Positions 36,332 to 62,834 of a stretch of DNA of 64,000 bases are shown piece after piece; the first letter of the stretch is position 1, and every line of letters starts with the position of its first letter. A program made the position numbers and the translations under genes. The DNA is from an uncultured Spirochaetota bacterium (GTDB lineage: Bacteria > Spirochaetota > Brevinematia > Brevinematales > JAOACQ01): assembly GCA_963835575.1 (NCBI GenBank), contig CAWIGG010000002.1:768001-832000 (forward strand). Reading direction: 5' to 3'. A model generated the notes under the pieces. That model worked only from the letters and a program-made list of their open reading frames with translations, did not search any database and was not told where the DNA came from.

Positions 36332-37851
36332 GTAACTATCCAGCCGCATATTTAATAGCGGAGCCGTTCAACGCGTCAATAAGGGCTTGATAAACACTGA
36401 CGCCCATCTTTTTTACTGTAGATATATAACCCCTGATTCTGCAAAAGGCAGCCGCTCCATTCCAGCTTCTGAATGTACCTGATATTTTCTGCTGGACTTT
36501 TATCATTCTGATATCCCGTTCCGCCAAATTGTTGCTGAATGGAACATCTTTTTCCCGCATAAATAAAAGGACAGATTCTTTATATTTTCTTAATCGGTCT
36601 AATAGGCATAAAACCTTGCCCCGCTTTTTTCTGCCGCGTTTAACAAGTCCTTCCGGCTTTTCAGGCGTTGGATTTACAGCAAATCCTTTCGCGATGATCC
36701 GGTCATATTCCGTATCATATTCTATAATCCTTTCCGCCGGTATTGGAAAACTTGCCTCTTTATCATTCTTAATCCTTATAAGAAGATTACCCATCTCCTT
36801 AGCCCATTCCTGACCCATTTCCTCATGTATCCAGATTAGCTCTCTCAAATGGTGTACATTACACAATCCATGACGGCATAAGAATTCCAGATAACTTTTC
36901 CATCCATCGTGGATAATAATACCGGTAAATCTTGTGAGAATGTCCATCGCACGCATCGCCTCTGTGCCGCGTTTGTCATGAGAAAAATAATAGGTAAAAC
37001 GTTCATTCGAGGCAACATGGAGCCATTTTAATAACCCTTTTATCCGAATACCGGTTTCATCACAGTGAAGAACCACTTCTTTTAGTATCAGTTCTATGAC
37101 TTTCTGTTCATACTCTTCTAATTTATTGTAGGTCTCCCGGATAAATCCTTCAATCGTTGCCTTGCTGAGCGGCACTCCCAATAAACATTCGGCGTATTCC
37201 GAAAGCCTTTCATAGGGTATCAACCCATATGTTTTCATATAGACCAGATGCGCTTTAATGTTTTTTCCATACTGTGCCTTATTGGTTATGCCTTCCGGAA
37301 ACTCCGCCGTTACTCTCGCACCGCAATGCGGACAATCTTTTACTTCCGAGCGATGTTCGGTAACTTCCACTTTTATCGGAGGTATATCGAACACCTGCCT
37401 TCTTTCCGTCCGCTTAACTGATTCGGAACTTAAATCAATTCCACAACAGGAACATTTTTCAACCTGATGTTCTATGATCTTATCAGGGCTTTCTACTTTC
37501 TTCAGAGTATTTCCCTTATGTCCAAACTGGCCGCCTTGTTTTTTACCGCTCTTTTTCCGTAAATTCTTTACTGTATTTTGGAATGGATTATCGGAAGACG
37601 GCGGTTTATTGCTGTTATGGCTGTCCTTATTAAGCTGTTCTTCCAATTTCTTAATCTTTTCCGCTTGTCTTTGAATGATTAAACCCTGCTCCTTTATCTG
37701 GTTTTGTAAATCAGCAATGATGCCTTCAAATCGTTTTAAGCAGGCCGCACAGTCTTTTTCTCTTCTATCTTCATTCATGCTATAGAATAGCATGGTTTCA
37801 TGCTCAATGCAAATATTTCATGTGACTATTTTTTAGTGGCTGGATAGTTAC
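36332..37851 (-). mobile_element. IS66-family insertion sequence, single-ORF type (ISBst12-like), 1520 bp
   Basis: 14-bp perfect terminal inverted repeats GTAACTATCCAGCC (36332-36345 / 37838-37851); 8-bp target duplication CATTATTC (36324-36331 / 37852-37859). Confidence 0.95.
36336..37793 (-). CDS. IS66 family DDE transposase
   Basis: Coiled coil, NS.KPPSSD, GGQ.GH.G, CxxC zinc ribbons, HCDETG, C..H..RE, NN.AER.IR..K...K.SG. Confidence 0.96.
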   Translation of the reverse strand: MLFYSMNEDRREKDCAACLKRFEGIIADLQNQIKEQGLIIQRQAEKIKKLEEQLNKDSHNSNKPPSSDNPFQNTVKNLRKKSGKKQGGQFGHKGNTLKKVESPDKIIEHQVEKCSCCGIDLSSESVKRTERRQVFDIPPIKVEVTEHRSEVKDCPHCGARVTAEFPEGITNKAQYGKNIKAHLVYMKTYGLIPYERLSEYAECLLGVPLSKATIEGFIRETYNKLEEYEQKVIELILKEVVLHCDETGIRIKGLLKWLHVASNERFTYYFSHDKRGTEAMRAMDILTRFTGIIIHDGWKSYLEFLCRHGLCNVHHLRELIWIHEEMGQEWAKEMGNLLIRIKNDKEASFPIPAERIIEYDTEYDRIIAKGFAVNPTPEKPEGLVKRGRKKRGKVLCLLDRLRKYKESVLLFMREKDVPFSNNLAERDIRMIKVQQKISGTFRSWNGAAAFCRIRGYISTVKKMGVSVYQALIDALNGSAIKYAAG

Positions 37852-41024: not shown

Positions 41025-41402
41025 GATTTTTGTTACGACTGGCAGTCGAGGGATTTGCGTACTTTTTTTCTTTTCGAAAAGAAAAAAAGTACGCGCGAAA
41101 AAAATAAAACAGGTCGAGGCCATTTTCATACGAAGCTGTCGGATTGGTTGGAGGTGTGTCATCCGGCTTTTAAAAAACGATTCCTTAATTTAATAGCCGC
41201 CTTATTACGCTGTCCTTGCCCAGCACCACTTTGAGGACGGGCAATCAAAGTGGTGCTGGGCGTGGCTTTATGCGGCGGTTTTGACATCCTTGTCAAAAAC
41301 ATGTACTTCTCTTCTATTATTATATTAGCGAATGACACGACTATATATCGAGATATTTTGTGTGCTGATTATGGTTTGGAGGAAAATGGCCTCGGGAACG
41401 GA
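41025..41402 (+). repeat. Left copy of a ~380-bp structured non-coding element
   Basis: Reverse-complement match to 51620-51996; 99 bp identical (41191-41289 vs 51732-51830); nested stems. Outer boundary approximate. Confidence 0.85.
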
Positions 41403-41629: not shown

Positions 41630-42450
41630 TTGTAAATCCCCACAAATGTGGGTAATACGATGACGGGCTTCGAACATCGGCAATTCCTCCGGTTCATCCC
41701 CATGCGTATGGGGAATACGAAAGTCCGGTGCTGCAATCGTAGGTAATTTCCGGTTCATCCCCATGCGTATGGGGAATACGAGCTTGTTGCCTTCAGCATA
41801 GAGTTTGCTGCCGGTTCATCCCCATGCGTATGGGGAATACTAACATAAACATCAATATGATTTGTCGTCGAACGGTTCATCCCCATGCGTATGGGGAATA
41901 CCACCGGACTTTCTTATGTTTTCGGGATTTTAGCGGTTCATCCCCATGCGTATGGGGAATACCACCGGACTTTCTTATGTTTTCGGGATTTTAGCGGTTC
42001 ATCCCCATGCGTATGGGGAATACTTGTTGCTTTCCGCCAGAACGAGTTCCATCGCCGGTTCATCCCCATGCGTATGGGGAATACTATTCCAACTATGGTG
42101 TCGAATGCATACGCTGCGGTTCATCCCCATGCGTATGGGGAATACAACCGGGCAGCATAAATTTGTTTGGAGAAATTCGGTTCATCCCCATGCGTATGGG
42201 GAATACTCCAGGAACCCCGGGAACTCTTTTCCATCTAACGGTTCATCCCCATGCGTATGGGGAATACGGTTGACGGAAGGGCTTTCAATGCTTTGCTTGC
42301 GGTTCATCCCCATGCGTATGGGGAATACAGCTGGTGCAAGTTCTTCCAATAGAATGATTACGGTTCATCCCCATGCGTATGGGGAATACAAATATTGCGA
42401 GATATAAATTGAAGCATATTACGGTTCATCCCCATGCGTATGGGGAATAC
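41630..42450 (-). CRISPR. Type I-E CRISPR array: 13 identical 29-bp repeats plus 1 degenerate terminal repeat, 13 spacers
   Basis: Repeat GTATTCCCCATACGCATGGGGATGAACCG (minus strand) every 61 bp from 41690 to 42422; 32-bp spacers (the distal one 31 bp); degenerate copy at 41630-41658 marks the trailer end. Confidence 0.99.
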
Positions 42451-42478: not shown

Positions 42479-42757
42479 CTATTTATCTACAGGTTTACTC
42501 AACAATGTAATGCCGTCAAAATCAACCGCCGTTCTTGAAGGATCGCCATTCACCAAAATCTTGAAAGACTGCTCGGCATTTGTGGAATACAGCATAATCG
42601 CGTTCAACTTCCAATCCTCCACGATTTTTCTCCAGAGCTTTTCCCTGATCCTCGCTCCGATATCAGCCACAAACACACCTGATTTAAGCTCCAATGCTAA
42701 GCGCGACATCTCGCCTTTCTGAGACGGCTTCGAATTCTCCATCATAATCACGACCAT
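42479..42757 (-). CDS. cas2: Type I-E Cas2
   Basis: MVVI.ME.....KGE.SR..LE..SGVFV......RE.LW...EQ.F...DFDG..L. Confidence 0.95.
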   Translation of the reverse strand: MVVIMMENSKPSQKGEMSRLALELKSGVFVADIGARIREKLWRKIVEDWKLNAIMLYSTNAEQSFKILVNGDPSRTAVDFDGITLLSKPVDK

Positions 42758-43577
42758 ATATCAATTCCTTCAGGTCGGGAATAATTCGCTGCATGATCCT
42801 GTTTTTCCTGAACGCGTCCCGGCACCGATACCGGACTTCCCTTTCCAGATGCTCAGGGTTATCCTTGACTGTCTGAAAAGCTATAGGAACAGTGACATCC
42901 GTCTTATAAAGATCGGCAATGTCATAAACAAAAGATAACTGCTTGCCGGTATGAACAAAACCGATGGCAGGGGACATGCCGCACGCCAGAACCGCCGCAT
43001 GAGTTATCCCGTAAAGACAGGAATTCGCTGAAGATAGGGCCCTGTTCAACGGGTCGCCGTAATCCCAGTGCTCCTGATTGTAATTCCTGCCTTTCCATTC
43101 AATTCCGTATTCCTCAGACAGCAAGTTGTAGCTTTTACGCACGCGGGCGCCTTCCATTCCCCTGAGCTGTTCGATGCTTTCGCTTCCTGTCAATTCATTC
43201 CCTCCGAAGCGTTTCCTGTACATTTCACGTACTATTTTCTCACGCGCCGCTTTGTCCGCCCATAGTTCCGCTTGCTTAAGCAGATTTCTTGAAGAATAAG
43301 TTCCCGGGCATCCGTATGAATAAAGCCTGACCCCCATCTCGCCTGTCCAGGCCACCAGGCATCGGCTTTCCGACAGGCATTTTACGGCCTCGTGAGTTAT
43401 GGAAGTCCCCGGCCCGAGCATCAAAACGCAGAGGGTTTCGACCGGAATAGGTATCACCTTGTCAAGATAATGAAACCCTATGGATTTTTGATATTGGTCG
43501 ATCAAGCCCTTTTCAAAATACAGATAACTCCATTCGTCCTCAAACTTCGGCAATTCCTGCAAATCCCGATTTTTCAT
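42684..43577 (-). CDS. cas1: Type I-E Cas1
   Basis: LMLGPGTSITHEA, LRGMEGARVR, N.ALS.AN.CLYG, GFVHTG..LSFVYDIADLYK; ATG at 43577 after AGGAGG. Confidence 0.97.
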   Translation of the reverse strand: MKNRDLQELPKFEDEWSYLYFEKGLIDQYQKSIGFHYLDKVIPIPVETLCVLMLGPGTSITHEAVKCLSESRCLVAWTGEMGVRLYSYGCPGTYSSRNLLKQAELWADKAAREKIVREMYRKRFGGNELTGSESIEQLRGMEGARVRKSYNLLSEEYGIEWKGRNYNQEHWDYGDPLNRALSSANSCLYGITHAAVLACGMSPAIGFVHTGKQLSFVYDIADLYKTDVTVPIAFQTVKDNPEHLEREVRYRCRDAFRKNRIMQRIIPDLKELIYGRDYDGEFEAVSERRDVALSIGA

Positions 43578-43709
43578 AAACTGCCTCCTTCCTTGGGAAA
43601 TTTCCCCCTCCCAATAAAGAAAGCTGACTATATGATTATCGGTTTGCGCCACTACAGAATATTCGCCTAATAGTAAAGAAAATATTCTGATAAAACAATT
43701 TATCTATCT

Positions 43710-44435
43710 TTATATTTTACGAACCATCAACATTCCAGAGCCGAAAGAACGCGAGTGGCCGATACCTTCAAACAAAACCTGCTTAAATCTTTCAGGGTCT
43801 TTAACAATTAGAATACCAGAGAGTTCAACACTATTAAACCGGATTTCATTTCCTCCTTTTTTACGCAATAAGTTTTGCCGATGTGCGGAAACTTCAATCT
43901 TTCTGTTTTCGCCTTCATTAACCGCAATCTGAAACCCTGATGCTTCTCCCTTTTTGACCATCCATTCTATTACCGCTTCTTCCATCCTTCGTTTGATTTC
44001 TTTGCGGTCAGTAATACCTTCTTTCTGAGCCCTAAATTTTGCATCCATTTGCACATCATGCTTAGAGGAATTCTCTTTTCCCTCAATTTTACGCGCAACT
44101 ATGGGATTTACTCTTATATTAAAAACCAACTTCATTCCTGATTTAAGTTTTGGATTATACTCCTTGGTTTCAACCCTCAAAAGACCGTTAACCGGAACCG
44201 GTTTTTTCTTCGATAAGACATAAAAAATAGGCATACCGCGTCTCGAATCGACAAATGGCATTTGCTCTTTTTCGAATTCCTGCCGGTAAAGAAATTCACG
44301 TCCGGAGTCGGGTTGATCGGGGAAAAGTTTCCAGATCAATTGATGTATGGCATAAATATCATTATTAAGCACTTTTATCAGATTCATATTAGCCTGAACC
44401 CCGCTCTCAATTCTAACCCTTGAGAAATACATCAT
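43710..44435 (-). CDS. cas6e: Type I-E Cas6e (CasE)
   Basis: Y..HQ.IW.LF, NP motif and C-terminal G-loop GIGHSRSFGSGML. Confidence 0.95.
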   Translation of the reverse strand: MMYFSRVRIESGVQANMNLIKVLNNDIYAIHQLIWKLFPDQPDSGREFLYRQEFEKEQMPFVDSRRGMPIFYVLSKKKPVPVNGLLRVETKEYNPKLKSGMKLVFNIRVNPIVARKIEGKENSSKHDVQMDAKFRAQKEGITDRKEIKRRMEEAVIEWMVKKGEASGFQIAVNEGENRKIEVSAHRQNLLRKKGGNEIRFNSVELSGILIVKDPERFKQVLFEGIGHSRSFGSGMLMVRKI

Positions 44436-45175
44436 GATTCACCTCCCGCCGTCATAGAGTGTTCTTTTCGGGGAGAAAACTGCCAGCGTCTGCGGTTTAG
44501 TGGTTCGTCAAAACGTTCGGTAGTCATTTGAGGCTGCATATCACCGGCTTCACCTTCCCATAAATAACGCGGATTTACAAATTCTATGTATCTTCCGGTA
44601 ATATCTTCATCTGAGTAATTTGTAACAAGCGGAGGAAATGACGCACCGTCCAGAGCGCCGCGAAATCCTGCGGATTCAATAATCTGCGGTTTGAGCGGTA
44701 CCGCCGGAGGACAGGATTTTCTCCCCAGATATATTACAAATTCCGGATAATTTAACTTTTGTTGCAGTTTTTCCAGGGAATAAGGTGCAACTTTTCTTGA
44801 ACGTAACGCAACTATGGACAGAGCGTCACAACGGTATTCCCGGCTGGTTAAAATAGTCCCTAATCGGTCTTTGCCAACCACTATTTCATCACGACGAGTC
44901 ATATAATGATATTTCCCGGTGCTATCCGGGACCTGTACCGTATGATAATCTTTAAGTAGTGTGCCGGGACTAAATACCTTTACCGAGACATCATAACCGA
45001 GAAACAGTGCTGTCAGTTTATCTGTTTCATCCCTTCTGATTCCCAGGGCTGCAGAAACCAATCCAAGAATTGCAGAACGGCTCGGATAAGATGAGCTTCT
45101 CCTGACCTCTCCGACAGCGATTTCACCCCAGGCGGCCAGAGGCCCGTAAAGTCTGAAAACAAGGAATTTCTCCAT
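44432..45175 (-). CDS. cas5: Type I-E Cas5 (CasD)
   Basis: L.GPLA.WG, PSRSA.LGL..AALGI.R, DYHTVQ, YLGRKSC.P. Confidence 0.96.
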   Translation of the reverse strand: MEKFLVFRLYGPLAAWGEIAVGEVRRSSSYPSRSAILGLVSAALGIRRDETDKLTALFLGYDVSVKVFSPGTLLKDYHTVQVPDSTGKYHYMTRRDEIVVGKDRLGTILTSREYRCDALSIVALRSRKVAPYSLEKLQQKLNYPEFVIYLGRKSCPPAVPLKPQIIESAGFRGALDGASFPPLVTNYSDEDITGRYIEFVNPRYLWEGEAGDMQPQMTTERFDEPLNRRRWQFSPRKEHSMTAGGES

Positions 45176-45178
45176 AAG

Positions 45179-46240
45179 TTACTCCTGAATAAATTTAATC
45201 AAATCAGCCGCGGAGCCTTTACCTTCAAAAGCGTTTAAAGTCTTTCTTTCTACTCCTTTAATATCATAAACTTTATCCATTTTTGCATATGTTGTTTCAA
45301 GCGCACTTACAGCATCTTCTCCAATATTATCCCCCTTAATCGGCTTGAGAAACGCGACAGAAAGTGAACGTGGCTGTTCATCACCTTTTTCCAAGAGTAC
45401 ATAAGATGCCCAAGCGCGGCTGGCATAGCTGTTCTGTTTGCCCTCGGGAGCAATCTTCACGGCTGATTCCAGTAAAGCGGCAAGTGTTTTATTAGCCAGA
45501 GTTTTATCATCCCCGAGATTTTGTATCAAAAGTTCCCGGTCAATACAGATATAGCTGTAGAAAAGGGCAGATGCGAAACCGCTTTCACCGATATGCGCCG
45601 CACCCATATCGTCTTTACCATTGTTAAGATCATCCACAGCGGTAAAATAATCATCTTCAATGACAACCGGATGAACGCTTATGGGGTGTGATACCTGGCA
45701 GGCGGCTTCCACATTATAGGCCGGACTGGAAGCCAGCATACGACCAAAAAGAGCGATATCGACAGCCGTTTCAGGATGGCGTAATAGTTGCAGTTCCGTC
45801 TCATTTGGCACCCGGTTTTCTTTAATCAGTCTGTCTGCCAATTTATAAACAGCTTCTATTTCTTCCGGTGAAATGTGCGCCAATTGCTCAATTTCAAGTT
45901 CTTCGTGTTTTTCAGGCTGTTTCTTGTTCTCACCTTTGAGTTTGCCAAATACACCTGCTATCGATTGCGCCCATTCTTTCGCGCTTTTTTCTTTAATTTC
46001 CCCTTTTATCAACCTTTCATATATTTTATGCCCAAGCTCTTTGGTTCTAGTTCCAATATGTCCGCTCATAGCCGATTTAAACAAATCAGAGGTTCTCCAG
46101 GCTCTTTTGATGCTCTGAGAAGAAATCCGAAGTCGATCAACTCCGCCCATTTTCGCTGTCTTCGGCCGGCCCATGTCGTCTCGGTTCAAATTTGCTGGTG
46201 GATATGATGTCAGGGTATGAATCTGAATAAACTTACTCAT
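45179..46240 (-). CDS. cas7: Type I-E Cas7 (CasC)
   Basis: NLNRDD.G.PK, R.RISSQS.KRA.R, DIALFGRMLA, DYFTAVDD. Confidence 0.97.
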   Translation of the reverse strand: MSKFIQIHTLTSYPPANLNRDDMGRPKTAKMGGVDRLRISSQSIKRAWRTSDLFKSAMSGHIGTRTKELGHKIYERLIKGEIKEKSAKEWAQSIAGVFGKLKGENKKQPEKHEELEIEQLAHISPEEIEAVYKLADRLIKENRVPNETELQLLRHPETAVDIALFGRMLASSPAYNVEAACQVSHPISVHPVVIEDDYFTAVDDLNNGKDDMGAAHIGESGFASALFYSYICIDRELLIQNLGDDKTLANKTLAALLESAVKIAPEGKQNSYASRAWASYVLLEKGDEQPRSLSVAFLKPIKGDNIGEDAVSALETTYAKMDKVYDIKGVERKTLNAFEGKGSAADLIKFIQE

Positions 46241-46270
46241 AAAAAATTCTCCTTTTAATTTTATTTTTCG

Positions 46271-46807
46271 TTATCTCGGAAGGTGTTGAAAATAATCCAG
46301 TCCCCATCGTATTAAAATCCTGTTACGCGGATTATTTTCCTCTTCACCATTTTCCCTTTCTTTGTACCAGTGAAGAATGCTGTCAGCGACAGAAACAGGG
46401 TCTGCTTTCTCACGCAAAAGGTGTATTGCCCTAATCATACGGATATATAGTTCATCCAATGTATGGCTTTTCTGGAGCTGAGCGAAACGAAGTTCACTCA
46501 ATGCCGGTTTATCTTTACCTTCTGGCGATGCTGCGCAGGATGCCGTAAAAGACTTTTCATCGATATACTTAATATGCGACACAATACCGGCCGCCGCCGC
46601 AAGTCCGAGTAAATTCCGTTCCTGAGTCCAGTATCCAGCTAGTTCATAATAGAGATAGCGGAAACCATGGCATAACAGAACATCTGCCGGGTTTTCCGAG
46701 CGTCGAAGTTCCGCCCTCCAGCCGGAATTTTCCTGAAGCTTCCCCCACCATGACTTCATTTTTTCCGGGTCTTCTTTGTTTCTGAACCCGTAATAATATT
46801 GGCTCAT
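46271..46807 (-). CDS. cse2: Type I-E Cas11 (Cse2/CasB)
   Basis: RAELRR, SELRF..L, W..DYF; position between cas8e and cas7. Confidence 0.93.
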   Translation of the reverse strand: MSQYYYGFRNKEDPEKMKSWWGKLQENSGWRAELRRSENPADVLLCHGFRYLYYELAGYWTQERNLLGLAAAAGIVSHIKYIDEKSFTASCAASPEGKDKPALSELRFAQLQKSHTLDELYIRMIRAIHLLREKADPVSVADSILHWYKERENGEEENNPRNRILIRWGLDYFQHLPR

Positions 46808-48375
46808 ACACCCTCCTGATTTAAGATTTGTAATGATTTCGTTTTAGGACTATTTAAAATACTGGTCAACGTTTTTGCGGCTTCGGCAACCCGCTTCATA
46901 TTCCTGGGTTCATCAGTTTCCTGCAAAGCAAACCGGTCGAAAATTCTTTCTACAGCTTTGATGATGATAGAACGCCATTCTTTTAAGATTGTAAAAGTAG
47001 GTTGGTTTCCTTCTATGCTTTTGCTTAGCTCATCGGTTATGGCATAAAAATCGGATTCTGTTTCTTCCCAGAAAGCGGAACGGATAAAAGATATATCGCC
47101 CTTTTTGTCACCGGGCCTATCAAACAAGGCTGATTTAACTTGATCTTGGAGTAATTTTGACATTTCATCGGCGGCGGTGATTATTTTTTGAACCTCTTCG
47201 ACAAATCGCTCTTTTTTATCTTCACTGATATTCAACAAGGGCATAGTCTGGTCGTACCAGCAACGGGCTTTCATATTATCCATATCATAACCAAAGCACC
47301 ATATTCTATTTTGCCCAGAATTACTTATTTTATATACCTTATGCGTAATAAAAGATTTTACAATTGCGGCTGCCTTCTCATTTTCCGATCCACCTAAAGT
47401 CAAAGAAAGCCAATCAGGATAAGAAAATCCTCCTTGTTTACCTTTGATTGCAATAAGGCTTGTACTTCCATCTTTTTCTTTCTGTTGTCTATAGGGGCTA
47501 AGAGTATGCTGCCAAATTGAAGAATAGCTTATACCATAGTTAATAGCTTTGAATTCTACCCAAACAGAACCAGTGCTTCCACAAATGCTACATGTTTTAG
47601 ATTCTATTTTTTTCAATAATCGAATACGGCGAGGCATGCCCCAATACATTTGTAATTCATTGACATCTGAAGGATTAGTTTGTATATCATTTTTACTTTC
47701 GCGAGTCAAAGCCATCCATGGAAAAATATTAAAAGGTGCGTTTTGGACTGGTTCTCCGAATTTTTCTTCTTTAGTCAAAATATTCAACCAAACCATTTTC
47801 CACAAAGAATCTTCTGAAGCCTCATTAATTATCAGTGTAGTTAAAGGACCACCACCCCTCATACCCGTTCTATGACCCTGACCACCTGATGGTGCATTAA
47901 TCTGTAAGGTGCTTAATGCCGTAGTCACACACCTATCACAAAGACATTCAACGACATCCCTTTTTACAAAATGATCTAAATTATTTTTTACAGTATTTGC
48001 CCCCGGTGAATCAATAAGAAGAGATCGTATATTTGAAACTTCTGCTTTTTCAGGAAGATTAAAATCCTGCATAAACGCCGGGCCATGCTCATTCACCAGT
48101 TCAAAAGCTTCTACGAATTTACTAAAAACCCCTCTCAATTCTTCACATGAAGGTGTTTTATCCCACCTATCTTTCCATTCCTTGTCATCTTCGGGAGCGT
48201 AAGCGGTTTGAACAAGTCCAATCATAAACTGGTAAAGCGCCCCTCGGAAATCCGGACGCGGCGCGGTAATTTCAGTAACAGGATTATCCGAAAGCCCAAT
48301 TTCCCAGGGAGCAATAACACATTCTGTTCCATCCGCACGTTTTACCGGAATCCACCGGTCTTTAATTAAATTCAT
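46804..48375 (-). CDS. cse1: Type I-E Cas8e (Cse1/CasA)
   Basis: MNLI.D.WIPV, PRPDF, APSGG.GHR...RGGGPLTT, YW.MPRR.RL. Confidence 0.95.
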   Translation of the reverse strand: MNLIKDRWIPVKRADGTECVIAPWEIGLSDNPVTEITAPRPDFRGALYQFMIGLVQTAYAPEDDKEWKDRWDKTPSCEELRGVFSKFVEAFELVNEHGPAFMQDFNLPEKAEVSNIRSLLIDSPGANTVKNNLDHFVKRDVVECLCDRCVTTALSTLQINAPSGGQGHRTGMRGGGPLTTLIINEASEDSLWKMVWLNILTKEEKFGEPVQNAPFNIFPWMALTRESKNDIQTNPSDVNELQMYWGMPRRIRLLKKIESKTCSICGSTGSVWVEFKAINYGISYSSIWQHTLSPYRQQKEKDGSTSLIAIKGKQGGFSYPDWLSLTLGGSENEKAAAIVKSFITHKVYKISNSGQNRIWCFGYDMDNMKARCWYDQTMPLLNISEDKKERFVEEVQKIITAADEMSKLLQDQVKSALFDRPGDKKGDISFIRSAFWEETESDFYAITDELSKSIEGNQPTFTILKEWRSIIIKAVERIFDRFALQETDEPRNMKRVAEAAKTLTSILNSPKTKSLQILNQEGV

Positions 48376-51117
48376 TCAAGCCTCCTCATTTAACTCCGCA
48401 CCCCACCCAAGTCGCGGATCATAATATTCCGATATCGGTTTATTACCAGAAAGTGCTTCGCTTGACCTGCAATTAACCAAAACGATTTCACTATATTTCA
48501 GTCTCGAAATTTCAGATTTTAATTTCTTTTCTAATTTTAAATAATCCGCAGACAGTTCATAATTAATTTTCTTCCAATTACACAAAGAAACAGAAAGAGT
48601 ACTCCAGTCCCAAGCATTATTTTCGACTTCCGCATAAGGAATCAGCTTGCCATTCTGGATAACAGCCAGGGCTATTTCCTGATTTTCTTCCATTAAACGG
48701 GTGCTTTTTTCTTCCTCTTCGCCCCAATCACTCAGTTTATCCGCATCCCAGCAATAACCCTTTTCAAGAATAATAGCACTCAAATCTCCCTGGGCCTCTT
48801 TTTTCCTGTCTGCACCCTCCGCCCTTGACACTTTTTCTTTCAGACCCTCCGGCAATTCCTGAGAATTATTCTCATCATAAACATTTTCAATTAAATCCCT
48901 TGCTTCCTCCGGCATCTTCCAACCCTTTTTCCCTTCCAATAATCTCTGCGTTCTCCAGAGAATCCCAACATTTTGATAAACAGATGATGTGCCTTTAAAA
49001 TCACCCGACAGCCAATTTTTATCAGCGTTATCGTTAAATACAGGACAGAACAAATAAATAACGGGAACCCCTCTTTCATCAACTGCATTGTCTTCAAGTC
49101 TGTTACCCTCTTTATCCCTGACATGCCGGCGAAGGCGCCCGGCTCTTTGAATCAATAAATCAATAGGGGCAAGGTCGGAAAACATAGCATCAAAGTCAAG
49201 ATCTAAAGACTGTTCCACAACCTGAGTTGCAATCAATATTCGGCCTTTTCGTTTATCTTTGCCGCTCATTATTCCAAAATTGTCAATAGTCGCCTTTTCA
49301 ATTCTTGCCCGATCGATCATAGCAAACCGGCTATGGAAAAGATCAATATTTTCACACTCAATACCAGACATGTTTCTTAAATCAAAATAGGCTTTTCTGG
49401 CATCCTTGACGGTATTGCGCACCCAGCAGACACATTCTTCCTTCTCGGCTTTCTTAATGATTTCAGCCAACACATCGGAATAATTGTAAGTAAATTTCAC
49501 ATCAACTTCCCTTTTCAACTTTTTACTGGTTTGGACAATATCAATCTTTAAAACATCTTTAGCTACTTGAGTTATTGAAGGAAAAGCTTTTTCACCGGAG
49601 TATTCTGTCACATCATCCTGATTCCCCAAACCTCTTCGGAACGCCTTTAAAATATCCCTTTTTTTCTTCAGTGGAATCGTCGCGGAAAGTAGTATTGCCG
49701 TACCTCCACTCCGTGCATGCGCTTCTAATAAAGTTTCTAATAAATGACCCATATAAGGGTCATACGCATGAACCTCATCTACAACAAGTACTTTTCTTTG
49801 CATTCCCAATAACCGAAGGGATTGATGTCTCACCGGTAAAATACCAATCAGAGCCTGATCGATAGTGCCTACCCCCACATCCGCCAGCAGGGCTTTTTTC
49901 CGATTGTCCGTAAACCATTCATTACAATAAGCACTTGCTGTTTCCTCAACATTTCCATAAGATTGATCCTCTTTTTGCAACAGCTTTATGAACACATCAT
50001 ATAAATGGCTTGATCCATGAGATAATATAATCGAAGGTTTTGAATTATCTGTATAAAGTTTGTAATAAGCTTGTTTCATTCTATTAAACATAGCGTTTGC
50101 CGTCGCCATTGTGGGCAACCCGATATAAAGCCCGTCCGCTTCCCCGGCAGCCATAATACGGGCGGCCAGTACCATAGCGGCTTCTGTTTTCCCCGCCCCG
50201 GTAACATCTTCTATTATGAATAACTTAGGTCCCGTACTTAAAGGTGTGATTTCAGCCAAAGACTGAAGAGGTGTCGGACGATGAATAAAAGGGAACATAG
50301 ATGAAATATCGCTGTATTTACTTGCTTTCCCCACGTTCCACCGGATTTTATCTAAAGCTATGCTCGCCTGTGATAAAGCCCTATTATTCCAATAATCTTT
50401 TAACTCTACTATATCAGATAGGTAAGGAAAATATTCTTGATTAGAACCAACCCAGTCCGCCAGAATACCAAGCCCGGCTATCTGCCAAGATAGTTCTTTT
50501 AATATTTTTTTAGGAATAATGTAATTTTCAGGAAACTCAGGAATTATACCCAAAAGATCAAAACAGGAATTTATAAAACTTTGGGCAGCTTTAACATCAT
50601 TATCATCAAAAAAAGAAGATACATATAATGGTGTATTTCCTCCTCTGCTAGACTCAAGCGGCGGAATTCCATGGTGACCAAATGCCGCTTTAATAATATA
50701 GTCAGCAATCTGCATCAAGATATTGTTTTTTGAATCGAATAAATATTTTATAGAATTTTCATTTCTATTCGGATCACCGCGCCAAAGAAGAAAACCAAGA
50801 GTATCATGCCTCTCTTCATAAATTTTAATTTTATGTAAAGGAAACAGAATACAATATAAACCAGGCACTAAGGATTGAAAGGTTTTTGAAAATTTTCCAA
50901 GGTCGTGAATGATCATAATCAATGTAATAACATAACGAACCGTTTTTCCAGGAAAGGATAGTTTTTGAGCTATATCCTTGCATCTCCGGGATTCCGGATC
51001 AAGCAACAGCCAAGTTACAGCGGCTACATCTAAGCAGTGGTATGGCAAAAGATGGTAAGAAAACTCTTTATCTCCTTTTTTGGTTGATTTTCCCCAGTAG
51101 AAATAATAATCTTTCAT
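48376..51117 (-). CDS. cas3: Cas3 HD nuclease-helicase
   Basis: YHCLDVA, HDLGK, GHHG, LADW; TG.GKTEA, DEVHAY, HSRF, ATQVVEQSLD.DFD, QRAGRL.RH. Confidence 0.98.
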   Translation of the reverse strand: MKDYYFYWGKSTKKGDKEFSYHLLPYHCLDVAAVTWLLLDPESRRCKDIAQKLSFPGKTVRYVITLIMIIHDLGKFSKTFQSLVPGLYCILFPLHKIKIYEERHDTLGFLLWRGDPNRNENSIKYLFDSKNNILMQIADYIIKAAFGHHGIPPLESSRGGNTPLYVSSFFDDNDVKAAQSFINSCFDLLGIIPEFPENYIIPKKILKELSWQIAGLGILADWVGSNQEYFPYLSDIVELKDYWNNRALSQASIALDKIRWNVGKASKYSDISSMFPFIHRPTPLQSLAEITPLSTGPKLFIIEDVTGAGKTEAAMVLAARIMAAGEADGLYIGLPTMATANAMFNRMKQAYYKLYTDNSKPSIILSHGSSHLYDVFIKLLQKEDQSYGNVEETASAYCNEWFTDNRKKALLADVGVGTIDQALIGILPVRHQSLRLLGMQRKVLVVDEVHAYDPYMGHLLETLLEAHARSGGTAILLSATIPLKKKRDILKAFRRGLGNQDDVTEYSGEKAFPSITQVAKDVLKIDIVQTSKKLKREVDVKFTYNYSDVLAEIIKKAEKEECVCWVRNTVKDARKAYFDLRNMSGIECENIDLFHSRFAMIDRARIEKATIDNFGIMSGKDKRKGRILIATQVVEQSLDLDFDAMFSDLAPIDLLIQRAGRLRRHVRDKEGNRLEDNAVDERGVPVIYLFCPVFNDNADKNWLSGDFKGTSSVYQNVGILWRTQRLLEGKKGWKMPEEARDLIENVYDENNSQELPEGLKEKVSRAEGADRKKEAQGDLSAIILEKGYCWDADKLSDWGEEEEKSTRLMEENQEIALAVIQNGKLIPYAEVENNAWDWSTLSVSLCNWKKINYELSADYLKLEKKLKSEISRLKYSEIVLVNCRSSEALSGNKPISEYYDPRLGWGAELNEEA

Positions 51118-51619: not shown

Positions 51620-51996
51620 TCCGTTCCCGAGGCCATTTTCCATTAGCCATAATCTGCGCATTAAATATCTCAATATCAAGTCGTGCTATCCGCTTTAATA
51701 ATAGAAGAGATGAAGCACATTCTTTTGACACGGATGTCAAAACCGCCGCATAAAGCCACGCCCAGCACCACTTTGATTGCCCGTCCTCAAAGTGGTGCTG
51801 GGCAAGGACAGCGTAATAAGGCGGCTATTATAAACGGGAATCATAAATTCAATAGACGGATAGCACACATCCATATCATCAGACTTCTTAGTATGAAAAT
51901 GGCCTCGACCTGTTTTCTTTCTTTTTTGCTCCTTTTCTTTCTTTTCGAAAAGAAAGAAAAGGAGCTTCCCCCAACAGCCTGTCGGAATAAAAAATC
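51620..51996 (-). repeat. Right (inverted) copy of the ~380-bp structured non-coding element
   Basis: Reverse-complement match to 41025-41402. Confidence 0.85.
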
Positions 51997-62774: not shown

Positions 62775-62834
62775 GCTGTCCCTCACCATTTTGTTCGGCT
62801 ATACTGTGTAGCCCGCAAAATGGTGAGGGACAGC
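62775..62834. repeat. Inverted repeat related to the 296-368 element
   Basis: GCTGTCCCTCACCATTTTG / CAAAATGGTGAGGGACAGC with a 22-nt loop containing GGCTA...TAGCC. Confidence 0.85.

Follow-up and report, generated by a model that had tools for sequence, protein, structure and literature searches.

The DNA analysed here, a stretch of 64,000 nucleotides from an uncultured Spirochaetota bacterium (the window), carries two copies of a folded repeat, A and B, and a complete type I-E CRISPR-Cas locus lies between them (Table 1). We wondered what kind of element this repeat is and how it might come to stand on both sides of a defence system. The original prediction had already described two copies. 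Both are real and 79% identical, but they are mutually inverted at a distance of 10.2 kb, copy A extends to 41402, and they are only two of 34 copies in the genome. Our model R2 matched copy A with 117.9 bits (41154-41340, minus strand) and copy B with 99.6 bits (51681-51868, plus strand). The two copies have one long identical tract in common, which surrounds a 44-bp insert. The GC content of the CRISPR-Cas island equals that of its flanks (0.416), and none of the CRISPR spacers found a full match elsewhere in its own genome. One repeat-spacer unit of the array is exactly duplicated (41873-41994). A transposase-like ORF of 485 aa is located at 36336-37793 of the window, and the same N-terminus occurs in an ORF beside an element copy elsewhere in the genome (C5:242917). 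The genome also has FlaA genes, a protein regarded as specific to spirochaetes, which points to a spirochaete as the host.

Table 1. Parts of the paired element copies and of the enclosed locus, in window coordinates.
Feature	Position	Strand	Remarks
Copy A, TwoAYGGAY-class element	41036..41402	-	GGA-loop strand; 5' end toward CRISPR-Cas island
Copy A, conserved 5' end and 5' arm of outer stem P1	41382..41401	-	partner 41115-41127
Copy A, 3' arm of P1	41115..41127	-	
Copy A, 5' arm of basal stem P2	41329..41338	-	partner 41156-41165
Copy A, 3' arm of P2	41156..41165	-	
Copy A, first GGA-capped hairpin	41279..41298	-	hairpin iv of the original prediction
Copy A, second arm: tandem-GA-type stem P4a and second GGA hairpin	41196..41278	-	split by insert
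Copy A, 44-bp passenger palindrome in loop of second hairpin	41218..41261	.	stem iii of the original prediction
Copy A, pyrimidine tract	41098..41109	-	predicted third strand of triple helix
Copy A, pyrimidine/purine hairpin	41058..41093	-	predicted duplex of triple helix
Copy A, small distal hairpin	41036..41048	-	hairpin v of the original prediction
CRISPR array	41690..42450	.	cargo; 13 repeats, 12 spacers (11 distinct)
Type I-E cas operon	42479..51117	-	cargo; cas3, cas8e, cas11e, cas7e, cas5e, cas6e, cas1e, cas2e
Copy B, TwoAYGGAY-class element	51620..51985	+	GGA-loop strand; divergent partner of copy A; 5' end toward island
Copy B, first GGA-capped hairpin	51723..51742	+	exact AYGGAY loop
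Copy B, 44-bp passenger palindrome	51760..51803	.	
Copy B, pyrimidine tract and pyrimidine/purine hairpin	51913..51965	+	predicted triple helix

All five stems of the original prediction were found, and folding of each strand of both copies gave z scores of -6.3 to -7.7 compared to shuffled sequences. On the strand that presents GGA in its loops, the fold consists of two basal stems (P1 and P2), two GGA-capped hairpins and a stem with tandem G-A pairs. We aligned 31 copies by sequence only (12 short copies from G000, the genome that holds the window, as well as nine from G006 and ten from G009, which belong to the same family but to another genus) and scored a hand-written structure of 26 pairs. 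Within this structure 81% of the cells were paired. Changes on both sides of a pair numbered 112, compared to 42 in shuffled alignments (0/500 shuffles) and no more than 28 in slid controls, a count that is inflated by the kinship of the three genomes, as is the number of covarying pairs (16, not above shuffle with 70/500). P2 was paired in 95% of the cells, each of the two inner hairpins had a stem of at least 3 bp in 30 of the 31 sequences, and GGA was present at both hairpin tips in every one of them, with an exact AYGGAY in part only. The stems of the inner hairpins are swapped wholesale between copies, and stem alleles are shuffled among copies. A protein-coding reading of the element was rejected; indels of 1 nt are frequent. 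The claim that selection acts on pairing is thereby supported by an alignment across three genomes, and the data support a fold whose pairing is probably under selection and whose folded strand would be either RNA or single-stranded DNA.

Several details of the fold had to be revised. The hairpin that had been taken for an invariant centre turned out to be the 44-bp insert, which is present in 11 of the 34 copies, A and B included, and breaks the second GGA loop. It resembles a separate group of palindromes, only about 50 bp long, whose arms are constant and whose loops vary; a loose pattern finds this family at 54 places in G000, and it is represented in the window at 287-377 and about 62780-62830. 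Hairpin iv had been thought to vary in its loop only; its stem differs as well, with full compensatory swaps in other copies. The double compensatory change in the long-range stem ii, our P2, is genuine, but among 29 parsed G000 copies the variable dinucleotide is matched in 19 only, while five are of the wobble type and five are mismatched. Because of the GGA loops and the tandem G-A pairs the strand can be assigned (minus for 41036-41402, plus for 51620-51985); in P4a, Watson-Crick pairs alternate with tandem G-A pairs, with 34 G-A cells versus two U-C cells. Counter to this call, the folding energy of the whole element is lower on the opposite strand, and the wobble pairs of P2 are split (five G-U versus seven A-C cells), as the original prediction had correctly seen. 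RNAalifold, when run on the G000 copies alone, missed P4a on one strand.

The original prediction had found no match to a known RNA family, yet the architecture is that of the TwoAYGGAY RNA motif (Rfam RF01731; Weinberg 2010, PMC2864571). As described for this motif, two sequential GGA-loop hairpins stand on a basal stem together with a tandem G-A stem (PMC2864571, PMC4333381), and tandem G-A pairs are reported as a TwoAYGGAY feature (Gardner and Eldai 2015, PMC4333381). The search against Rfam that had been suggested as a check returned only tRNAs and chance miRNA-type hairpins from the window, at gathering thresholds as well as at E<=10, and RF01731 had no match in G000, the window copies included. 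The relatives were informative: five homologous copies of G006 and G009 were matched on the GGA-loop strand, the best one (G006) with 37.2 bits against a gathering cut-off of 43. Among 150 other genomes of the phylum, RF01731 matched five, two of them above the cut-off. Since the scores remain below 43 bits and G000 gives none, the element is a variant of the TwoAYGGAY class and not an Rfam member. It also differs from RF01731 in that many of its loops read A(N)0-2GGA instead of an exact AYGGAY, and it is longer, with the outer stem and a 3' tail added.

An extended form of TwoAYGGAY was described in a recent preprint as multi-copy and patchily distributed, with upstream repeats of 5-6 nt, divergent doublets and a terminal 3' hairpin; mobility and CsrA sponging were both proposed and both left open (bioRxiv 10.64898/2026.09.22.753630). 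Our element is alike in its many copies, its patchy presence, its divergent doublets and its terminal 3' hairpin (bioRxiv 10.64898/2026.09.22.753630), and it likewise has an elongated basal stem (P1 and P2). Divergent doublets are enriched here too (11 of 17 close pairs at <=12 kb), albeit without an excess in G000 alone. In contrast, the extended motif is found largely in Pseudomonadota, its doublet spacers have a median of 249 bp and its 3' contact is described as a pseudoknot (bioRxiv 10.64898/2026.09.22.753630), whereas our element resides in a spirochaete, has spacers of 1-10 kb that mostly hold defence genes, and ends in a tail that fits a triple helix. The words 'triplex' and 'cargo' are absent from the main text of the preprint (bioRxiv 10.64898/2026.09.22.753630).

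A second TwoAYGGAY type was encountered in the same phylum. The genome G133 carries 33 near-identical copies of about 194 nt (e.g. L176, L179, L182), which have inverted repeats at their termini and lack a triplex tail; three of ten copies are flanked by an exact 5-bp duplication. Shorter deletion forms share the same ends, and the type appears MITE-like. No transposase-like ORF was noticed as its autonomous partner in 20 windows, based on visual inspection of N-termini alone. In three genomes of genus g70 (L169, L171, L172), one or two TwoAYGGAY-like matches per genome lie directly upstream of a tRNA-like sequence on the opposite strand.

In a pyrimidine-motif triple helix, the third strand must match the purine arm of the duplex in parallel. 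The 3' tail of our element has an arrangement of this kind: a pyrimidine tract follows the outer stem and is joined by a short linker to a pyrimidine/purine hairpin, and the tract mirrors the pyrimidine arm of the hairpin, so that it matches the purine arm in parallel. Tails could be parsed in 42 of 56 flanks and represented 27 distinct haplotypes. The mirror match was better than the direct match in 19 haplotypes, worse in none and tied in eight (permutation p<5e-5, overall and within genomes); the tail of copy A gives a tie, owing to one mismatch. Reading the tract as a direct repeat, i.e. as an alternative pairing, also scored above shuffle yet never beat the mirror. Of 22 such modules of tract and hairpin in the genome, 20 were attached to a copy of the element, and none occurred in three shuffled genomes. 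A similar tail is found behind the Rfam-positive copies of three of the seven positive genomes (G236, G293 and G327, of the class of G189), where a short automatic score favoured the mirror in eight copies and the direct repeat in two; the other four RF01731-positive genomes lack such a tail, and so does G133. From this layout the 3' end of the element is predicted to form a pyrimidine-motif triple helix.

Triple helices at RNA 3' ends have a precedent in MALAT1, where a U-rich third strand lies on a U-A-rich duplex with C-G interruptions near the 3' end. The predicted tail shares the U-rich third strand, the U-A-rich duplex with its C-G interruptions and the position near the 3' end. MALAT1 differs in being a eukaryotic lncRNA with another strand order (PMC6379651). 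Among bacterial repeats, the intrastrand triplex repeats BoxC, PIT and TM are dispersed in intergenic regions and were linked to locally variable parts of genomes (Holder 2015, PMC4666352). Like our element they combine a dispersed intergenic mirror repeat with a hairpin, but TM is a short, G/C-rich stand-alone motif, whereas the tail described here is T/A-rich, of the pyrimidine motif and the end of a larger fold (PMC4666352).

These features also bear on another reading of the repeat, an ordinary MITE with P1 as its terminal inverted repeat, whose symmetric changes arise from palindrome repair alone. The 13-bp perfect inverted repeat, the size and the copy number would suit a MITE, but palindrome repair does not give rise to invariant loops, tandem G-A pairs or a mirror repeat. 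Around single copies we found no target duplication: matches involving a copy's own tail, scored as 5-8-mers in 31 copies with an ill-defined 3' end, were at the cross-copy background. Since conservation of the family passes P1 by 8 nt on one side and by >80 nt on the other, and since there is no target duplication, we disfavour a plain MITE and consider it very improbable.

How widespread is the element? A combination of BLAST, anchor motifs and a profile identified 34 copies in G000, some of them truncated or interrupted; the structure model matched 28 in G000, 27 in G006 and 35 in G009. With a sequence-only model, homologues were found in two of 42 other genomes of the class, namely G006 and G009, and in none of four genomes of the same genus. 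The structure model, used with stricter filters, had no match in 150 other genomes of the phylum. BLAST with copy A found no full copy in 60 relatives, and profile models were required. Exact-pattern scans returned nothing from metagenomes (0 and 0) or viral contigs (0) and two matches from a genome collection that looked chance-like on inspection; as a control, the second exact pattern matched 61 of 167 loci. Because of this patchy presence combined with dozens of copies, we infer that the element is a non-autonomous mobile element.

Some copies are themselves interrupted by IS1182-like elements, a group II intron or a second transposase. These inserts of 1.8-2 kb were considered as an autonomous form of the element and rejected, being of these diverse kinds and located at differing internal sites. 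One IS1182-family element (transposase of about 490-500 aa) was repeatedly found in the loop of the triplex hairpin in three genomes, and another IS1182-like element and the group II intron sit in GGA loops (insertions at G000 C5:49400-51200, C6:286200-288000 and C6:309000-310800, and at L102, L108, L111 and L118).

The conserved GGA loops point to another possible role. Copies might be transcribed, stabilised by the 3' triple helix and titrate CsrA, with the proximity to defence genes being secondary. Such a role was proposed for TwoAYGGAY (PMC4333381; bioRxiv 10.64898/2026.09.22.753630), csrA is present in G000 and G006, and GGA at both tips of all 31 aligned sequences would suit CsrA binding. 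However, two genomes without the element, G001 and G002, have csrA as well, the second loop is broken in the 11 insert-bearing copies, promoter signal was not above chance (promoter and terminator scans were at chance level), and dozens of copies with patchy presence suit mobility. We therefore regard a regulatory RNA as improbable. A cis-regulatory leader is argued against by the genes next to the copies, whose strand is not biased with respect to the element.

We then considered how copies are oriented towards each other and towards their neighbours. Adjacent copies at <=12 kb in the three genomes are divergent in 11 cases, tandem in six and never convergent (p=6e-4; p=0.11 at 6 kb and 0.006 at 20 kb), whereby the kinship of the genomes makes pooled p-values overstate the effect. 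G000 alone (two divergent and three tandem pairs at <=12 kb) shows no enrichment. Of the 11 divergent pairs, eight enclose PADLOC defence matches and three do not, although the ORFs of L103 and L157 were scanned in part only. The cargo of the eight comprises the CRISPR-Cas locus of the window, three type I restriction-modification (RM) loci, a SIR2/Dsr1-like locus, a Ppl-like gene with a methyltransferase, Fic with a type IIG enzyme, and an HNH nuclease with a weak match. Outside the divergent pairs, the neighbours are mostly housekeeping genes. Two divergent pairs of 24-25 kb have core genes inside, and at L105, L106, L117 and L118, where some loci were hand-chosen as pairs, the divergent position is taken by a solitary 3' tail. 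Unannotated genes inside divergent pairs (L101:3261-5502, L111:1062-3829, L154:1989-4204) are candidate defence genes by position.

The asymmetry extends to copies in general. Across all 34 copies of G000, GC3 of the first gene is 0.41 on the 5' side versus 0.57 on the 3' side (lower on the 5' side in 26 of 34, p=3e-4). PADLOC matched 23 of 66 genes on the 5' side and seven of 65 on the 3' side, and on either side several of the matched genes are homologues of housekeeping genes; unambiguous RM or Cas genes account for 12/66 and 0/65, respectively. Among 58 proteins from the 5' sides of G006 and G009 copies, 11 have a homologue in G000, and seven of these homologues are located no more than 10 kb from a 5' end; regions this close to a 5' end make up 6.8% of the genome. 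Two of the seven are 83-87% identical over the matched stretch. A type IIG RM protein with an internal Y1 transposase-like domain (L162; G000 C5:410121-410444, ORF of 1207 aa) adjoins a copy. In other lineages, four of four long divergent pairs inspected (G293, G236 and two in G133) hold mostly housekeeping-looking genes, and bracketing of defence genes is therefore so far a trait of this subfamily. In the literature on TwoAYGGAY we found neither a triplex nor defence bracketing reported, the preprint's supplements, which may bear on both, lying outside this search; the triplex tail and the copy polarity with its defence bracketing are apparently unreported features.

How might such an arrangement arise? 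Two inverted copies could be the ends of a composite non-autonomous transposon that moves with its cargo by means of a trans-acting transposase. Whole systems that are cleanly bracketed, with housekeeping genes outside, would agree with this, and so would the inverted repeats and flanking duplications of the G133 type. However, most copies are unpaired and we found no transposase with matching ends. In addition, the partners in the window are no more alike than random copies (mutual similarity ranks 26/30 and 13/30), and their outer ends lack a duplication, with no shared repeat of >=8 nt. Because of the partner ranks and the missing outer repeat, the pair is not a recent composite transposon, and we rate this explanation as rather unlikely.

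Alternatively, a selfish repeat and defence genes may merely share tolerant gaps, if the element inserts at the borders of islands in a single orientation. The insertions that have hit the copies themselves (IS1182-like elements, group II intron, second transposase, small palindromes) speak for such gaps. Long divergent pairs of other lineages are without defence cargo, and about half of the distinct N6-methyltransferase loci of G000 are not beside a copy. Nevertheless, passive co-location needs separate reasons for the strong asymmetry between 5' and 3' sides, for the lack of close convergent pairs and for same-side cargo common to two genera, and we hold it to be unlikely.

We favour a different explanation over these two, the CsrA sponge and the plain MITE: divergent pairs of the TwoAYGGAY-fold element could well be slots in which foreign defence genes are exchanged, a reading that we give about an even chance. 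The element would spread as a non-autonomous mobile unit moved by an enzyme in trans. Once folded, its strand (RNA or single-stranded DNA) would display two GGA loops of the CsrA type and end in the triple helix on its 3' side, and the spacer between two 5' ends would take up or swap cargo, most simply by recombination of resident and incoming copies. Such recombination would explain the mosaicism of copies as well as partners that are not each other's closest relatives. We saw no empty site, excision or transfer of cargo, and the same-genus genomes are not syntenic at spoIID/mreB.

No cognate enzyme was found; Y1/RAYT-like genes near some copies are flanked by other small palindromes. G000 has four RAYT-like genes (C2:257021, 456247 and 500570; C4:784590), some with unrelated short palindromes at their flanks; one is directly beside a copy and one lies 9 kb from another copy. 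As cognate enzymes they are unsupported, the palindromes at their flanks being unrelated to the element. REP repeats and the REPIN/RAYT system resemble our element as non-autonomous palindromic repeats that occur in inverted pairs, as described (PMC3733652, PMC3337134). Compared to REPINs, the units are about 300 nt instead of 20-40, no GTAG/CGTC tag was noticed, the spacers hold whole gene systems, and the RAYT-like genes nearby have different flanking palindromes.

A more far-reaching version of the exchange-slot explanation is possible, though on balance doubtful: the triplex-tailed divergent pairs may serve in cis as the ends of a so far undescribed, protein-free kind of cassette by which entire anti-phage systems (CRISPR-Cas, type I, IIG and III RM, SIR2-type) are captured and exchanged between spirochaete genera, which would give TwoAYGGAY a role in the turnover of defence islands.

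TwoAYGGAY has stood as an orphan among structured motifs since 2010, and the 2026 preprint, in its main text, leaves its mobility and function unresolved. The subfamily described here offers two direct tests: the covariation of three strands, from which a triple helix at a bacterial 3' end is predicted, and the constant polarity with which defence systems are placed between the 5' ends of a pair. Should the pairs be exchange slots, this would account for the way in which some defence islands keep their borders and are renewed in the absence of a resident integrase, and the unannotated genes enclosed by the pairs would be candidates for new defence systems.
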